A model generated the notes under the pieces. That model saw nothing but the letters and a program-made list of their open reading frames with translations, was not told the DNA's origin and did no database searches. A DNA stretch of 33,934 nucleotides from Promethearchaeota archaeon. GTDB taxonomy: Archaea; Asgardarchaeota; Lokiarchaeia; Sigyniarchaeales; SOKP01. Location of the stretch: NCBI GenBank assembly GCA_016839705.1, contig JAEOTR010000049.1:1-33934 (forward strand), written 5' to 3'. The position numbers were made by a program, and so were the translations under genes. Below, one piece after another: positions 5,929 through 12,056 of the stretch (positions are counted from its first letter, which is position 1; the number at the start of each line of letters is the position of its first letter).

Positions 5929-6947
5929 TCATCTAATTTTTACATCAATGACTGCCGGTTTACCTGAATTTTTAGCACGCTCAAGAGCATTTTTAATTTC
6001 ATTGGGATCAGAAACCGATTCACCATAACACCCAAAAGCTTTAGCAAGTTTACCATGATCAAATTCAGGGAGGTCTACATCAATAGTACGATTTTTAAAG
6101 ATAGATTGCTGACCTGTTTTGATCATTCCATATGCACTATTATTTGCTACCACATAAATTAGATTATTTAACCCCAAACGTACTGCAGTTTCTAATTCTT
6201 GTATATTTATCATGAAAAAACTATCCCCCGATATTGAAACTACTTGTTTATCTGGTTTTGCCAGTTTAGCACCAATACCATATGGTATTGAAGTCCCCAA
6301 GTGTCCCATACAGATTGAATGAAGTGTTGATAAAGGTTTTCTATTGTACAAATGGAGTAGAGCATGAGTGGTATAAACGATATTCCCACCATCGATTACT
6401 AGTATTGTATCTTCATCAATAAAATCTAATACTTCTTTTACCATCCTGAATGGATCAATTGGCCTGTAGCCTCTCGAAAAGCTTTACGAACCGCATCAGC
6501 AATATCTTCTATCTTGCGGACACTTTTTTGGTATTTAGTTATTGGTTTAAACATTGTGATTTGATCTATTCCTCCTTGTAGTGAGAATTTATTAGCCTCT
6601 TGAGTTTTAACCTGTGCTACAATAGTAATCAGAGGAATATTATCACCCCACGCAGCTGCTACACCCGGTACTAGGTGTGTTGCACCAGGTCCCACCGTTC
6701 CCATACACACTCCAGGAGTATTGGTTACTCTTGCCCACGCATCCGCTGCATGTGCCGCAGCTTGCTCATGTCGAAACATAACAGTATCAATCCCTTTCTC
6801 ACGACCCCATCTGTAAACGGCATCATAAACCGTTAAGAGTTGACCACCAATTATCCCAAATATTTTTGTAACAGATTCTTCGAGGAGGCATTTTATTAAG
6901 ACATCCCCGCCCCTAATTATTTTCTTCTGCTCTTCCACATTTTTCAC
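5929..6947 (-). pseudogene. Acetolactate synthase-like TPP enzyme with internal deletion/frameshift (fragments 6438-6947 and 5929-6444)
   Basis: N-domain (FRHEQAAAHAADAWARVT...GPG) abuts C-domain (MGHLG, GD..MINIQEL..NNSAYG) in a different frame; central domain missing; GDG motif reads GDS. Confidence 0.8.
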
Positions 6948-7120
6948 TTTTAAATAAATACTCTTATGATACTTGTTAAAACTTAACTTTTTACTTATAA
7001 TTAATTAATAACAAATTTAATTACATGAGACAATTTGAGAATTGACAAGATATAGTCGGTTAAACTATTTCCTTATGAATCATATATTGATACATTAAAA
7101 AGTGTTGAAAGAAATAATGT

Positions 7121-7146
7121 CCTCCTAGTATTAGATTACTAGGAGG
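7121..7146. terminator. Perfect 10-bp hairpin downstream of the small-ORF array
   Basis: CCTCCTAGTA-ttagat-TACTAGGAGG. Confidence 0.55.
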
Positions 7147-7212
7147 TTTATTTCTATATTATGGAAATGAAAAATAATCATGAAAAAAATATAAAATTAA
7201 AAAGAATATTTA

Positions 7213-7296
7213 TTAAAGGTCTTTTAGACCAAATTTATATTTAGTTGGATGATACATATAATCTCCAAGTGTATTTTCCCTTTTTTTATTCGACAT
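7213..7296 (-). CDS. 27-aa small protein MSNKKRENTLGDYMYHPTKYKFGLKDL
   Basis: AGGAGG SD 8 nt before ATG; follows the 7318-7401 ORF by 21 nt; not in ORF track. Confidence 0.65.
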   Translation of the reverse strand: MSNKKRENTLGDYMYHPTKYKFGLKDL

Positions 7297-7317
7297 TTTA
7301 TTTTCCTCCTATTTTAT

Positions 7318-7401
7318 TTAGCGAATTGAATTTTGAATTATGGGATTATATCCAGGAAACGCTTTTTTCATATTTTTTATTTCTTTTAATTCTTTTCTCA
7401 T
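7318..7401 (-). CDS. 27-aa small protein MRKELKEIKNMKKAFPGYNPIIQNSIR
   Basis: GAGGT SD upstream; TATA-like promoter about 60 nt upstream; shares RKELxxIKNM with the 8160-8228 ORF. Confidence 0.65.
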   Translation of the reverse strand: MRKELKEIKNMKKAFPGYNPIIQNSIR

Positions 7402-7459
7402 TTTTTTTAACCTCTTAGTTTATTTTTTTTTTACTTAATTTTATAATTATTTTGTTTCC

Positions 7460-7477
7460 ATATATAGTTTTATTACC
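7460..7477 (-). promoter_or_regulatory. Promoter P2 of small-ORF array (GGTAATAAAAC-TATATA)
   Basis: 14/15 identical to 8622-8636; contains BRE/TATA-like AAAC-TATATA; 62 nt from ATG 7401. Confidence 0.55.
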
Positions 7478-7825
7478 ATAACTTTCTGCGAAGTTCGAAA
7501 CTTGTTAAAAATTTAACAAAAAGAAGTAGAAATAATTTATAACTTTGGTATTCTTAAGGGAAATATATCTTTCCTTGGGGGACTTATCTATTTAGAAGAT
7601 AGATATAAACAATTAATTTTGGGTTTTCCAATCTTAAAAAGATGATTGTATATGACTTAATCCTCTTTTTTATCAAAACAAACTAGAATTGAAGCACTGG
7701 TTACACCATGGTTTTTTATACTCTGCTTGATAGTTTCTGATTTTTCTCTGAATTCTGAGTATTCTTTATATTCTTTTATGAGTTCTAAATTCTTATCAAT
7801 CTCTTCTAGTGTAATATTAATTAAG

Positions 7826-8008
7826 TCAGGATGTTTTGGATCTTCGAGTTATACCTATCTTACCCTTTTTCTTTAGTACTTCAGTTTTCTCCTTTCTCTT
7901 TAATTCACATAAAGGACAGGAGATAACCTTGTTATCGATTATAATCATTCCTGTTTTACAATTAGGACATTGAGTACGAACCGTAAAATTAAAATCCTCA
8001 AAACTCAT
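7826..8008 (-). CDS. Small Zn-ribbon protein (CPNC...CPLC), possibly continuing by +1 frameshift to 7657
   Basis: GGTGA SD before ATG 8008 (MSFEDF...); two CxxC motifs; downstream +1 frame open from 7848 to 7657. Confidence 0.6.
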   Translation of the reverse strand: MSFEDFNFTVRTQCPNCKTGMIIIDNKVISCPLCELKRKEKTEVLKKKGKIGITRRSKTS

Positions 8009-8159
8009 ACCTTTCACCCTTTCGTTTACAGTTATTTTACAATTGTCTTTGGGCGGATTGGAGCCCCGCCCTTGCTCTTTTAGTGAAATCAATAGGGAAA
8101 TGGTGAGTTGATAAAAATTGTGAACGTAAAATGTAAATTAAAAATGAAAAAAAAAATAT

Positions 8160-8228
8160 TTAACGACGTATGTAATACATGTTCTTGATAATAATCAATT
8201 CTTTTCTGGATAATTCCTTATTCTTCAT
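8160..8228 (-). CDS. 22-aa small protein MKNKELSRKELIIIKNMYYIRR
   Basis: GGAGGT SD 7 nt before ATG; followed by oligo-T; not in ORF track. Confidence 0.65.
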   Translation of the reverse strand: MKNKELSRKELIIIKNMYYIRR

Positions 8229-8300
8229 TATGTTTACCTCCTTTTTGTTTTTTTTTTATTTTTGTTTTTAGTTATATTTTAAATACTTTTGTTAAATCTT

Positions 8301-8555
8301 CTACCGTAGCCCATAATTCCTGTGAACTCGCTGCCATTCAAGACGGTGGATTGGAATTACATCTTCAGGATATTTTGCGTTTAATTCTGCTTTTTTGAAT
8401 AATTTGGATAATCGCTTTTTAACGGGTTTCTTTTCTATTATCTTAGGTTTGATTGTTTTTTGAATTCTTACCTGCTCTAAGCGCATCTCCAAATTTATCT
8501 GTTCTATATCAATACAATTCATTCTTACCGACTTTTTTTCTGATACATGAGCCAT
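8301..8555 (-). CDS. 84-aa basic hypothetical protein
   Basis: ORF track; Lys/Arg-rich; first gene after promoter P1. Confidence 0.7.
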   Translation of the reverse strand: MAHVSEKKSVRMNCIDIEQINLEMRLEQVRIQKTIKPKIIEKKPVKKRLSKLFKKAELNAKYPEDVIPIHRLEWQRVHRNYGLR

Positions 8556-8618
8556 TTTTTTTTCTCTCTTCTTTGTTTTTTTTCTTTTTTTTCTTAAATA
8601 ATAGGAAGATTTACATCA

Positions 8619-8636
8619 ATTTATAGTTTAATTACC
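8619..8636 (-). promoter_or_regulatory. Promoter P1 of small-ORF array (GGTAATTAAAC-TATAAA)
   Basis: 14/15 identical to 7463-7477; TATA box TATAAA; 67 nt from ATG 8555. Confidence 0.55.
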
Positions 8637-8690
8637 TATACTTCAATTGTAGTTTGTAGTTCATCCGAAGTTTCTACGCTTATGTGAACA

Positions 8691-8705
8691 AGAAACCTTA
8701 AATAA
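8691..8705 (+). promoter_or_regulatory. BRE/TATA promoter for the 851-aa regulator
   Basis: AGAAACC-TTAAATA, archaeal BRE + TATA pattern. Confidence 0.45.
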
Positions 8706-8767
8706 GAGTTGTACTATTCATTATTTGTAATAGAATTCATTTTCTAATGGTACTTCAGTGATTAATT

Positions 8768-11323
8768 ATGAGTGGAACAGAACCGACGAATTTTCCGCCT
8801 GAGGAGGTTGTTCAATCTCTACTTACAGAAAAAAAGAATTTTGAGCATATTATCCTCTGGATGTTGAGTAATAACGATAAAGTTGAGTGGGCAGATTTTA
8901 AGCGAAAACCGATTGATATGGCGCAATCAACGTTATCGAATTATATGACTAAGTTATTAAGCAAAGAATTTGTCGAAAAGATAGAGAGGGGTAAATATAA
9001 AATTACTCCTAAGGGTGAAGAGAGGTATAACGAATTATCAAGGGTCAAAGAAGTAAAGAGAAAATTAAATTGTCCTCCAGATGTAATTAGGCATTCAAGA
9101 GACTATAGTCATATTATCCTTTGGATGGCTTATAATAATAGTTACTTAAAATGGTCAGATTTTACAGAAGAAGATTCTCCACTAAGGATTAATCAATCTT
9201 CTTTGTCAAAGAATTTAAACCTATTGCAGGAATATGAACTCATTAATAAAGGGGAGAATAAAGAATATCGAATTACTCGACTGGGTAAAGCTGAATATGC
9301 CAGAATTTTAAAATCGTATGACTTGGATAGGCAATCAATATTAAATGAAGAAAGTAAACGGATTGAAGAAATAACAAAAAGAACCATCCGGTTTTTTGAG
9401 AGGTATAACATTGAGGATGATGATATCAAATTTCGATTTTTAAACAATGTTTTAACGCTACCTTTTGAGAAGCTGAAAGGTTCATTAGATAGTGAGGATG
9501 ATTTTAATAAAATTCTTCTATTTCTTTCAATGAACCATCCAAATCAGTATCCAGAAAATATTTCACCTGAGGCATTTTCAAAGAAATTTGACATTGATAA
9601 ATTAGATTTGGAATTTAACATTCGAAAGATCACTGAGAAAGGTGTGTATTCTACTAAATTCTTCAAATTAGAGGTTGAAGATGATAAAACTTATTATTTT
9701 CAAGCAAATGAGAAAATAGAGAAAGTGTTAAGTGCGATAACCGAGGATCATATAACGAAATTTACTTATTTAAATAAATTATATGAAAAGACTTCAAGAG
9801 GTACACCCCAATTAACAATGGAATCGACTACTGATGCAATATTACTCGAAATTTGCGATCATTTATTTGATTCAAGATTAAAGGATCCTTTGAGAGAATT
9901 TTTACCAGAATATATTAAATATTTAGCATATAAAATGCAAAAACAGAAAAAGTTAGAAGAAATTACAGATAAATTAGAAGGGACCATATGGCGCGATTTT
10001 CAATATTATAGTGCTACAAGTGAGCCCCCTAAAACTTATGATGAAGACCATGAATATTATTATCTAATGCCTCAAATTTTTGATATATTGGATGATAGTT
10101 ATATAGTTCCTAGTACTTCTGCAGTTGTTAGAAAGACAAAAAAGGTATTAACAAACAAATATGAATACAAAAGAGCTTTAAAATTTGTAGATTCTAGCAT
10201 CAAAAAAGGACTAGATAATATTGAAATTAAGTTATTTAAATCAATAGTTCTATGTTATTTAAATAAATTTTTTGAAGTAATAGATTTAATTGGTAAGGAG
10301 ATAGATTATGAACAATATCAAGATGAAGAAAAAATATATGTGGCATCTTCATTTATTCTTGCCTTTTCGTATACATCTTTAGGTAATGCTGATGCTGCAT
10401 TAAAAATAATAGATAAAACCTATAAAATATATCCAGAGAATCCCATACTATCAGCAGCAAAAGCACTAATCTACGGATATAGCATTATTTATGATTTTGA
10501 TGTTGAAGAGGGAAGTGACGATTCTGTTTTAGATTTAATAGATGAAGTAATCAGAAATGATCCAAAAATTACGAACAAAGCCAGGTATTATCAATTTAAA
10601 AGTATTGTCATGGAACAAATGGATAAGGAAGAAGAAGGTCTTGAGGAAATCAATTTAGCTCTTGATTTAACAGAAGACATTGTGGATTTATACTATTTTA
10701 AATCAAAATTTCTCTCATCATTAGGAAGATATGATGAAGCATTGACGGTTCTTAAGGAAACGATGAAGAAATTCCCGGATAGTAAAAAGCATATGTTAAT
10801 GCAACAAGCCTATATTCTTAAGATGGCAGGTGATTATCAATCGGGTTTAGAGATAATTTCAGATTTGACGCAGACTTATCCAAAAGAAATAGATTTTAAC
10901 AACAACAAAGCATACTGGCACATTTATATTTATCAAGAAAATAGAGATAAGGGAATTGAAGATGAGGAAAATAAAACAGCAGCGATTGAGACGATTAAAT
11001 CTTTAACTGAGGAATCTCCAGAAGAGGGGAATTATTTTGATTCCTATGGTGAAATCCTGATGATAACAGAAGATTACGAAAACGCGATAAAGATGTATGA
11101 AAAAGCTATTGAGACTGAACCAAATGGTTGGTTTATACCTTCTTCTTATGTTGGTATCGGAAAATGTAATGAAAAACTTGGGTTTTACGAGAAAGCGGAA
11201 GTAAATTTCAAAAAAGCAAGACAAATAGTACGTTATTGCTTTTGCCATATTAAGAATAGAAAAGAGTGGATTGAAGAGATTGAATACCACTTAAAGAAAA
11301 TTAATGAAATGAAACAAGAATAA
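8768..11323 (+). CDS. Tandem winged-helix + TPR putative transcriptional regulator
   Basis: Two homologous N-terminal units (HIILWM.NN...W.DF...QS.LS..L..L...Y.IT..G...Y); C-terminal TPRs (YYFKSKFLSSLGRYDEAL, YFDSYGEILM..EDYENAI). Confidence 0.85.
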   Translation: MSGTEPTNFPPEEVVQSLLTEKKNFEHIILWMLSNNDKVEWADFKRKPIDMAQSTLSNYMTKLLSKEFVEKIERGKYKITPKGEERYNELSRVKEVKRKLNCPPDVIRHSRDYSHIILWMAYNNSYLKWSDFTEEDSPLRINQSSLSKNLNLLQEYELINKGENKEYRITRLGKAEYARILKSYDLDRQSILNEESKRIEEITKRTIRFFERYNIEDDDIKFRFLNNVLTLPFEKLKGSLDSEDDFNKILLFLSMNHPNQYPENISPEAFSKKFDIDKLDLEFNIRKITEKGVYSTKFFKLEVEDDKTYYFQANEKIEKVLSAITEDHITKFTYLNKLYEKTSRGTPQLTMESTTDAILLEICDHLFDSRLKDPLREFLPEYIKYLAYKMQKQKKLEEITDKLEGTIWRDFQYYSATSEPPKTYDEDHEYYYLMPQIFDILDDSYIVPSTSAVVRKTKKVLTNKYEYKRALKFVDSSIKKGLDNIEIKLFKSIVLCYLNKFFEVIDLIGKEIDYEQYQDEEKIYVASSFILAFSYTSLGNADAALKIIDKTYKIYPENPILSAAKALIYGYSIIYDFDVEEGSDDSVLDLIDEVIRNDPKITNKARYYQFKSIVMEQMDKEEEGLEEINLALDLTEDIVDLYYFKSKFLSSLGRYDEALTVLKETMKKFPDSKKHMLMQQAYILKMAGDYQSGLEIISDLTQTYPKEIDFNNNKAYWHIYIYQENRDKGIEDEENKTAAIETIKSLTEESPEEGNYFDSYGEILMITEDYENAIKMYEKAIETEPNGWFIPSSYVGIGKCNEKLGFYEKAEVNFKKARQIVRYCFCHIKNRKEWIEEIEYHLKKINEMKQE

Positions 11324-11333
11324 TAGTTGTATT

Positions 11334-12056
11334 CTATTTTTTATAGCCTACTTTAACAATTATTGAAATAGACTCTTCGAAAGTCATTCCTTCTACGCTA
11401 CACTTAAAAGCTAAATCTTCAGATCGAAACAAAGTTGTGAAGTAACCTAGCCAATATTCTGAAAACCGTCTGTTTTGCCTATGTTTAAAAAGCATATGAT
11501 ATTCATCGTTTTCCTCATGTACATCGATCGCATAAAAATAATTTGCGACAACCCACATCTTTGCGATAGTATTTATTATTTCTTCAACTGTAAGGCTTTT
11601 AAGGGGTTTACCGGTATACCACAATATTAGATCAAACGCTACATTCTTATGATATGCTCTTTCTCTGGCATCCTCGGGCATCTCAGCAGCATGAATAAGT
11701 TGATTAAAGGTGGTTTTACCTATAAGGCACATTTTCATTTCATCTCGTGCACGAACCCAAAGATCTCTATCTAAACTTTTTTGTTCCCCAAAATACTTAA
11801 TTGCTCGTTCAATGAAAACGAATTTTGGTTCTTCTTTTTCTTTATATTTCTCGATAATCGCTAGAATTTCAGGTGAAATTGAGTTGAATTCATCAAAACA
11901 CTTAACCGCATTTTTGACTAGATCAGATATAGTACTACCTTGTCCCTTATATTTATCAATTAAACCTCTGATTTCATCACTTACTTTAACATATAATGAT
12001 TTATCTTTAGGTTCAGATTCATCAACTTTATCATTCTCCTTTGCGATAAGAATCAT
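11334..12056 (-). CDS. Ribbon-helix-helix (CopG-like) regulator with C-terminal V4R-like sensor domain
   Basis: SLYVKVSDEIRGLIDKY...ISDLVKNAV RHH pattern, partly duplicated (ISPEILAIIEKY...FIERAIKYF); C-terminal alpha/beta domain. Confidence 0.6.
   Translation of the reverse strand: MILIAKENDKVDESEPKDKSLYVKVSDEIRGLIDKYKGQGSTISDLVKNAVKCFDEFNSISPEILAIIEKYKEKEEPKFVFIERAIKYFGEQKSLDRDLWVRARDEMKMCLIGKTTFNQLIHAAEMPEDARERAYHKNVAFDLILWYTGKPLKSLTVEEIINTIAKMWVVANYFYAIDVHEENDEYHMLFKHRQNRRFSEYWLGYFTTLFRSEDLAFKCSVEGMTFEESISIIVKVGYKK

Follow-up and report, generated by a model that had tools for sequence, protein, structure and literature searches.

In the 33,934-nucleotide contig JAEOTR010000049.1 of a Lokiarchaeia genome (Promethearchaeota archaeon, assembly GCA_016839705.1; this whole stretch is called the window below), a gene for an 851-amino-acid (aa) protein with tandem winged helix-turn-helix (wHTH) domains and a C-terminal array of tetratricopeptide repeats (TPRs) stands head-to-head with a gap that holds five small open reading frames (ORFs). 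Here, we found that these ORFs are real micro-genes, that a conserved operator precedes them at the spacing of an activator site, that copies of them are dispersed in the genome and that a wHTH-TPR protein is always available. Based on this combination, we lean, by a modest degree, toward the view that the micro-proteins are the output of a regulon with the tandem-wHTH/TPR protein as its activator, and that the ligand of the TPR array comes from elsewhere.

A preliminary description of the window had seen in the gap five co-oriented minus-strand ORFs of 84, 22, 60, 27 and 27 aa, all with Lys/Arg-rich products and the four shorter ones with Shine-Dalgarno (SD) sites, and all of this was recovered (Table 1). 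SD sequences lie before positions 8228 (GGAGGT), 8008 (GGGTGA), 7401 (GAGGT) and 7296 (GGAGG), the 84-aa ORF has no canonical SD, and the net charges of the products are +11, +5, +8, +5 and +3 in the order given. Between 6948 and 8300, the minus strand holds four SD-led ATG ORFs of at least 20 aa and the plus strand has none; in 2000 dinucleotide shuffles, such ORFs averaged 0.028 and never exceeded 2. The layout is not an assembly artefact, since contigs from public sequencing runs cover the region with 0-1 differences: one spans 6768-9200 with 1 difference, from a run that may itself be the source of the window, and one spans 7199-8365 with 0. No RNA run was among those listed with the sequence, a result without bearing on expression. 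That the ORFs arose by chance in an AT-rich spacer or by mis-assembly, as the 26% GC of the gap might suggest, is refuted by their conservation; the shuffle test, the recurrence across genera, the signs of selection and the public-run contigs together leave this explanation practically no probability.

Small ORFs do recur beside homologous regulators, which was one of the points on which the preliminary description had staked its proposal. The 84-aa ORF (family A; motif N[AP][KR]YxEExIP, aromatic/Arg tail) is matched at E<=0.1 in 45 of 53 genomes of its genus, and most of the strong matches are found ~200 bp away from the start of an oppositely oriented gene for a homologous regulator; in the window it adjoins the regulator gene at 212 bp, with the 22-aa ORF as the second. 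The related loci belong to metagenome-assembled genomes of Promethearchaeia/Lokiarchaeia, Loki_b32 among them. The 22-aa ORF (family B) has ten orthologues in the same position, the four Cys of the Zn ribbon are invariant across 13 homologues, family C has a paralogue in the same genome (C30:23617) with a near-identical promoter ahead of the gene, and family D is present in 37 of 40 same-genus genomes. At regulator loci the 22-aa, Zn-ribbon and both 27-aa families recur SD-led and in similar order, and the cassette of about 80 aa followed by 22-29 aa is conserved in genera g1, g18 and g38, its first gene also in g19. Pairwise ratios of non-synonymous to synonymous change (dN/dS) of 0.23 (22 aa), 0.43 (family D), 0.52 (84 aa) and 0.52 (Zn ribbon), from rows partly chosen by protein motif, indicate that the small ORFs are under purifying selection. 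With hhalign, profile comparison separates A (64-92 aa), B/C (22-29 aa; B and C are related at 88%) and D into three groups, in addition to the Zn ribbons, and so rules out one ancestral motif for all families. The modules are shuffled: the family-D tail occurs alone or at the end of 65-95-aa proteins, and A-type starts are joined to C or D tails at loci L189, L274 and L275.

One feature absent from the preliminary description is a conserved promoter. The first small gene is preceded, in a consensus of 45 training loci, by AACT-N6-GAAGTT, about 11 bp and then AAACTATATA. The spacing from operator to TATA is fixed across loci, and each regulator subfamily has its own operator variant. In the window, one copy of this promoter precedes the 84-aa gene and a second copy the first of the two 27-aa genes. 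The predicted boxes of unit 1 are the top hit in the genome with 41 bits, the operator heading unit 2 scores the same as that of a cassette by a 635-aa paralogue on contig C30, and the two promoters of the window share a direct repeat, D3. Unit 2, including its 3' hairpin, closely resembles the C30 cassette. While the five ORFs of the preliminary description stand, their single array is in fact two promoter-led transcription units about 420 bp apart. By this comparison, unit 1 (84, 22 and 60 aa) would be the cassette of the regulator itself, and unit 2 (27 + 27 aa) a cassette of the kind that accompanies ~635-aa paralogues, probably controlled in trans. In archaea, the usual binding site of an activator is immediately ahead of the transcription factor B (TFB) recognition element, BRE (PMC5512572), and the predicted operator lies in this activator position, where the regulator would bind the boxes.

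Is this promoter a private feature of regulator loci? A genome scan with a position weight matrix gave 13 sites above 20 bits and 0 in 10 column permutations. Ten of the 13 precede proteins of 25-84 aa, and four of these ten are monocistronic family-A genes (contigs C85, C52, C20 and C21) with no regulator nearby, from a subfamily of stand-alone genes with nine matches in the same genome. At the regulator paralogues L101, L186, L188, L193 and L211, the same operator and TATA stand before genes of 199-445 aa. The peptide families, too, are found elsewhere: a family-B gene is the first of a bactofilin operon that has an operator of the ACACA type and lies next to an RHH_8 gene in one case and to an ArsR-type gene in another, and solitary family-D genes, with yet another promoter, have an AbrB-domain regulator as neighbour. 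No one peptide is conserved at all regulator loci (L089 and L189 are without A, L090 and L061 without B/C), and L014 is discordant, having a TPR of the 836-aa clade and both peptides of the 850-aa type. This distribution suggests a dispersed micro-protein regulon, not a private peptide. Of the regulator-micropeptide module that the preliminary description had put forward, the conserved module itself exists; the pairing of one receptor with one peptide is weakened, because peptide families occur under other regulators, copies stand alone and paralogues drive large genes.

We propose that the regulator is a lineage-specific transcription activator, that its duplicated winged helices bind the AACT-N6-GAAST boxes about 11 bp upstream of BRE/TATA and that the box-bound regulator helps to recruit TFB and the TATA-binding protein, by which short transcripts with A-rich leaders would be switched on. 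The operator and its spacing are seen in the conservation; binding and activation are what we infer from them. The multi-copy, module-shuffled micro-proteins would be the output of the regulon, in line with the role of regulated effectors that the preliminary description had considered and that fits the conserved activator-position operator. They are probably disordered and most likely act inside the cell, where their short conserved motifs may dock on shared cellular targets, perhaps inhibiting them or serving as adaptors during a response of the stress or dormancy type. The fast-diverging TPR array would serve as the sensor and may bind a protein or peptide signal not necessarily encoded at the locus.

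Several points weigh against the output reading. The stress or dormancy role is suggested by architecture only, and the motif-based choice of rows bears on the dN/dS values. A target can at the same time be a ligand: in Rgg/SHP, PlcR/PapR and ComR/ComS, too, the regulator turns on the gene of its own peptide, so that the operator evidence alone cannot separate an output from an intracellular feedback or a secreted signal. Between sister subfamilies, moreover, the TPR part is ~33% identical versus ~66% for the DNA-binding half, as expected for ligand diversification.

The AlphaFold2 model of the regulator (predicted local distance difference test, pLDDT, 82) has the domain order wHTH1 (residues 25-93), wHTH2 (113-183), helical bundle, wHTH-like domain (243-340), linker and ~10 TPRs (435-850). 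Pfam hits are the winged-helix families HTH_45/HTH_34 (HTH_45 at residues 50-97) and TPR_2, TPR_1 and TPR_8 at residues 640-786 (E 1e-13 to 2e-10), and wHTH1 and wHTH2 arose by duplication within the protein (hhalign 99.9%). The two wHTH domains and the C-terminal TPRs of the preliminary description are borne out; the candidate third, wHTH-like domain is added by topology in the model and found no support from Pfam or hhalign. The wHTHs best match MarR/PadR/HxlR structures (Z 9-10, root-mean-square deviation (rmsd) 1.6-3.7 A, 69-83 residues). TPR residues 447-851 best match canonical superhelices (Z 20-22.5, rmsd 7-10 A, ~290-360 residues), with Z of 22.5 for BBS4 and 22.0 for OGT versus 16.4 for RapH (rmsd 5.4, 249 aligned), 14.7 for NprR and 14.4 for PlcR, and no RRNPP protein was among the top 50 Foldseek matches listed, though to be missing from such a list rules nothing out. 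Cys 800, 824 and 826, near the C-terminal end of the TPRs, are conserved in at least 95% of the 830-850-aa proteins and may bind a metal or be redox-active.

The regulator family is nearly restricted to a single family of genomes. Of 120 host-family genomes, 94 carry it; outside the host family, 2 of 196 genomes of a phylum-wide draw match, weakly, one more same-order genome has a strong match, and two closed same-order genomes (4.4 and 6.0 Mb) gave no match or a weak one (E 1e-6). Paralogues fall into length classes of about 450 (without a TPR hit), 635, 830-850 and 990 aa, those with TPRs measuring ~635-1000 aa, and the genome of the window has five copies. The regulator tree is a quick one, with peptide labels from patterns that miss some ORFs. 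A search of the available literature found no description of the regulator family or its peptides.

Could a micro-protein nevertheless be what the TPR array reads? We hold it to be possible, with clearly less confidence than we place in the output reading, that at least one of them is a true TPR ligand. In an intracellular feedback, a cassette product (84 aa or 22-27 aa) would bind the TPR groove as anti- or co-activator and set a timer or bistable switch with no export. Such a feedback would agree with the head-to-head pairing conserved in four genera, the hypervariable TPR and the conserved peptide length and aromatic or Arg C-termini, and a weak hint comes from family-A distances, which, in non-independent data, follow the TPR (r 0.85) over the N-terminal half (0.68), although the latter is physically closer. 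However, non-coding control DNA likewise follows the TPR in the distance test, with the same TPR and helix-A bias in Mantel tests, and the short peptide follows TPR and N-terminal half equally (0.32 and 0.31; partial Mantel, 28 curated loci, p-values inflated by kinship). Family-A copies standing alone, peptide families used by unrelated regulators, TPR-bearing paralogues without peptides and the discordance at L014 also speak against it, and we regard the feedback as rather unlikely. A complex prediction for regulator and 84-aa protein scored 0.00 with an uncertain partner fold, which counts neither for nor against.

The preliminary description had likened the system to RRNPP. RRNPP receptors measure 250-500 aa (10.1101/2021.08.18.456871); they have an N-terminal Cro/XRE HTH (PF01381) when one is present and an adjacent 10-70-aa pro-peptide gene, whose product carries a Sec signal, with SHP, PrgQ and leaderless peptides as exceptions (10.1101/2021.08.18.456871; PMC12700828). 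The Asgard protein shares the TPRs, as Pfam hits and as ~10 helical repeats in the model. The adjacent gene encodes 84 aa at the window locus, with the 22-aa ORF second, and 23-27 aa at many ~635-aa paralogues. It is 851 aa long, PF01381 is absent among its listed Pfam hits, which name the winged helix instead, and the six peptide alignments contain no Sec-type signal and no apolar run above 5 residues, as the preliminary description had noted in finding no hydrophobic signal. Because size, HTH type and Sec signal fail, the regulator is not an RRNPP member by the published criteria, and membership has to be given up; its TPRs seem nearer to generic OGT/BBS4-type arrays.

By analogy, the module may still work like Rgg/SHP. 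It resembles RRNPP(A) systems, especially Rgg/SHP and ComR/ComS of Bacillota, in joining an N-terminal DNA-binding part to a C-terminal TPR array, in the short genes adjoining the receptor (divergent as in Rgg/SHP), in the expansion of paralogues with variable TPRs and in a regulator that probably drives the peptide promoter. It differs in its two MarR/PadR-type winged helices (plus the third, wHTH-like domain) versus one Cro/XRE HTH, in cassettes of several unrelated peptide families that other regulators use too, and in its archaeal host. In a convergent quorum-sensing system, the 22-27-aa peptides would leave the cell by a non-Sec route, be trimmed, enter the cell again and be read by the TPRs. 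The divergent layout with its activator-position operator would suit this, as would peptides with a basic N-terminus, short Ile-rich core and variable C-terminus, a major facilitator superfamily (MFS) transporter gene (MFS_1/MFS_3) 3' of the cassette at ~11 loci of the regulator clade, an oligopeptidase F gene in this place at several ~635-aa loci, and the bypass of Sec by SHP, PrgQ and leaderless peptides. Yet the transporter and peptidase neighbours are syntenic, may reflect one event each and are both absent from the window locus, the apolar runs are short, single cassettes hold several unrelated families including Zn ribbons, and HTH type and size depart from RRNPP. We consider a secreted cell-cell signal, the strongest form of the ligand idea, improbable.

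The product might also be the RNA, a short stable transcript with CATTTCC and hairpin, or the act of translation in a leader control, with the peptides secondary. The perfect 10-bp hairpin of the preliminary description is present at 7121-7146; the folded 60-nt segment has -21.6 kcal/mol, and homologues occur at C30:23699-23781 (89%) and L105. The hairpin of unit 1 shows compensatory change in 2 of 7 pairs over 10 aligned loci, weak support since the rows were picked by hairpin pattern. That the 3' motif and hairpin are conserved in both units and at homologous loci, and that cassettes often stand ahead of larger co-oriented genes (MFS, Rab-like GTPase, bactofilin), would be in keeping with an RNA or leader role; the dN/dS of the 22-aa ORF, the invariant Zn-ribbon Cys and monocistronic copies with nothing downstream make such a role a distant prospect.

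Beyond RRNPP, the archaeal promoter-proximal activators Ptr2, TFB-RF1 and EarA also use repeated sites that lie immediately ahead of BRE/TATA with constant spacing, as found here at 45 loci with ~11-bp spacing; unlike them, the Asgard protein is much larger, combines tandem wHTH with a TPR sensor and would target mostly micro-protein genes. In bacterial stress and sporulation regulons, a single regulator likewise governs a set of tiny paralogues with a promoter each, the small acid-soluble proteins being an example; no sequence relationship was found. The TPR superhelices of OGT, BBS4, LGN/Pins and LbcA are the best structural matches and many bind extended peptides, but none is fused to winged helices, and a shared repeat fold shows no function.

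Table 1. Coordinates of the regulator gene, the small genes and the associated signals in the window.
Feature	Position	Strand	Basis or remark
851-aa regulator	8768-11323	plus	Pfam, AlphaFold2, structural comparison, hhalign
Putative half-site and BRE/TATA of regulator gene	8686-8705	plus	conserved in close loci
Two tandem predicted operator boxes, AACT-N6-GAA(G/C)T, unit 1	8640-8654 and 8658-8672	minus	motif and spacing of 45 loci
BRE/TATA AAACTATAAA, unit 1	8620-8629	minus	sequence comparison
84-aa small protein	8301-8555	minus	family A; first gene of unit 1
22-aa micro-protein	8160-8228	minus	family B; RRELIIIxN motif; SD GGAGGT
7-bp GC hairpin, conserved	8051-8071	minus	after U-tract and CATTTCC motif
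60-aa zinc-ribbon protein, CPxC...CPxC	7826-8008	minus	13 homologues
Open stretch of 57 codons without ATG start	7657-7830	minus	between the two units; protein-like composition
Predicted dyad operator of ~635-aa-paralogue type, heading unit 2	7480-7496	minus	37.7 bits
BRE/TATA AAACTATATA, unit 2	7461-7470	minus	sequence comparison
27-aa micro-protein	7318-7401	minus	family C; GYNP motif; first gene of unit 2
27-aa micro-protein	7213-7296	minus	family D; PxKYKFGLKDL tail
Perfect 10-bp hairpin closing unit 2	7121-7146	minus	after U-tract and CATTTCC

Further small genes were observed across the related loci. Five stand-alone acidic genes of ~70 aa (C85:106629, C52:50416, C21:11275, C20:9122 and C17:43407) have the LNPRY motif or a variant and near-identical operator/TATA promoters in unrelated neighbourhoods. 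A second type of micro-ORF locus (L121-L123, L128, L130, L141 and L143) lies behind repeated ACACA boxes and carries 23-aa family-B genes, sometimes in tandem, and a 25-32-aa family (YEDLExVK) ahead of bactofilin and coiled-coil genes, with an RHH_8 gene upstream at L122. Proteins of 70-95 aa with the family-D tail stand alone at L148-L155, L160-L165 and L172, often with a 296-aa AbrB-domain regulator as neighbour, and a promoter motif of another kind is common to most of them. Another family of 23-27 aa, starting MKKGPVCY, is conserved in the upstream cassettes of L069, L077 and L086, and cassettes of 990-aa paralogues (L189, L195-L201, L208 and, in the genome of the window, C65:5900-6000) contain micro Zn-ribbon genes of 31-46 aa with a CxKCGK motif, often two in tandem. 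Rab-like GTPase genes (Pfam Ras) are found repeatedly 3' of 635-/830-aa-paralogue cassettes (C30:23470-30322 in the same genome; L175, L184-L194, L212-L214), oligopeptidase F genes 3' of other ~635-aa cassettes. An HbYX proteasome-gating tail was dropped as inconsistent across family members, and the ESM Atlas gave nothing informative for the 84-aa or 71-aa proteins.

Within the window, the 57-codon stretch between the two units has no other match in its genome and is a possible gene remnant; an inverted repeat, 7678-7701/8634-8657, was dismissed as chance since one arm lies within this coding-like remnant. A TPP-dependent, acetolactate-synthase-like enzyme at 5929-6947 (minus strand) is split into an N-terminal ORF of 169 aa and an overlapping C-terminal ORF of 171 aa, without a Pfam match for the middle domain; the split is real, because its junction is crossed by two public-run contigs that show no differences. 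At 11334-12056 (minus strand), a 240-aa gene outside any Pfam family converges on the regulator, as do its homologues at L067-L069, L015, L011 and L080, and our impression is that its product may be a ribbon-helix-helix-plus-sensor regulator.

Here, a previously undescribed regulator family, which most genomes of one large Lokiarchaeia family carry in several copies, comes with a predicted DNA site and a regulon composed largely of genes too small for routine annotation. Gene regulation of an uncultured Asgard lineage thereby becomes testable with purified protein, synthetic DNA and peptides. If the TPR array reads these peptides, bacterial peptide signalling would have an archaeal counterpart, arisen by convergence among the closest relatives of eukaryotes, and the module would be the first known archaeal peptide-responsive transcription switch, with an origin independent of RRNPP and paralogue-specific peptide codes. 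If the peptides are not TPR ligands, a rare dedicated micro-protein regulon would still stand, and with Rab-like GTPases and TPR proteins as frequent neighbours of the cassettes, we anticipate that its targets are worth finding.

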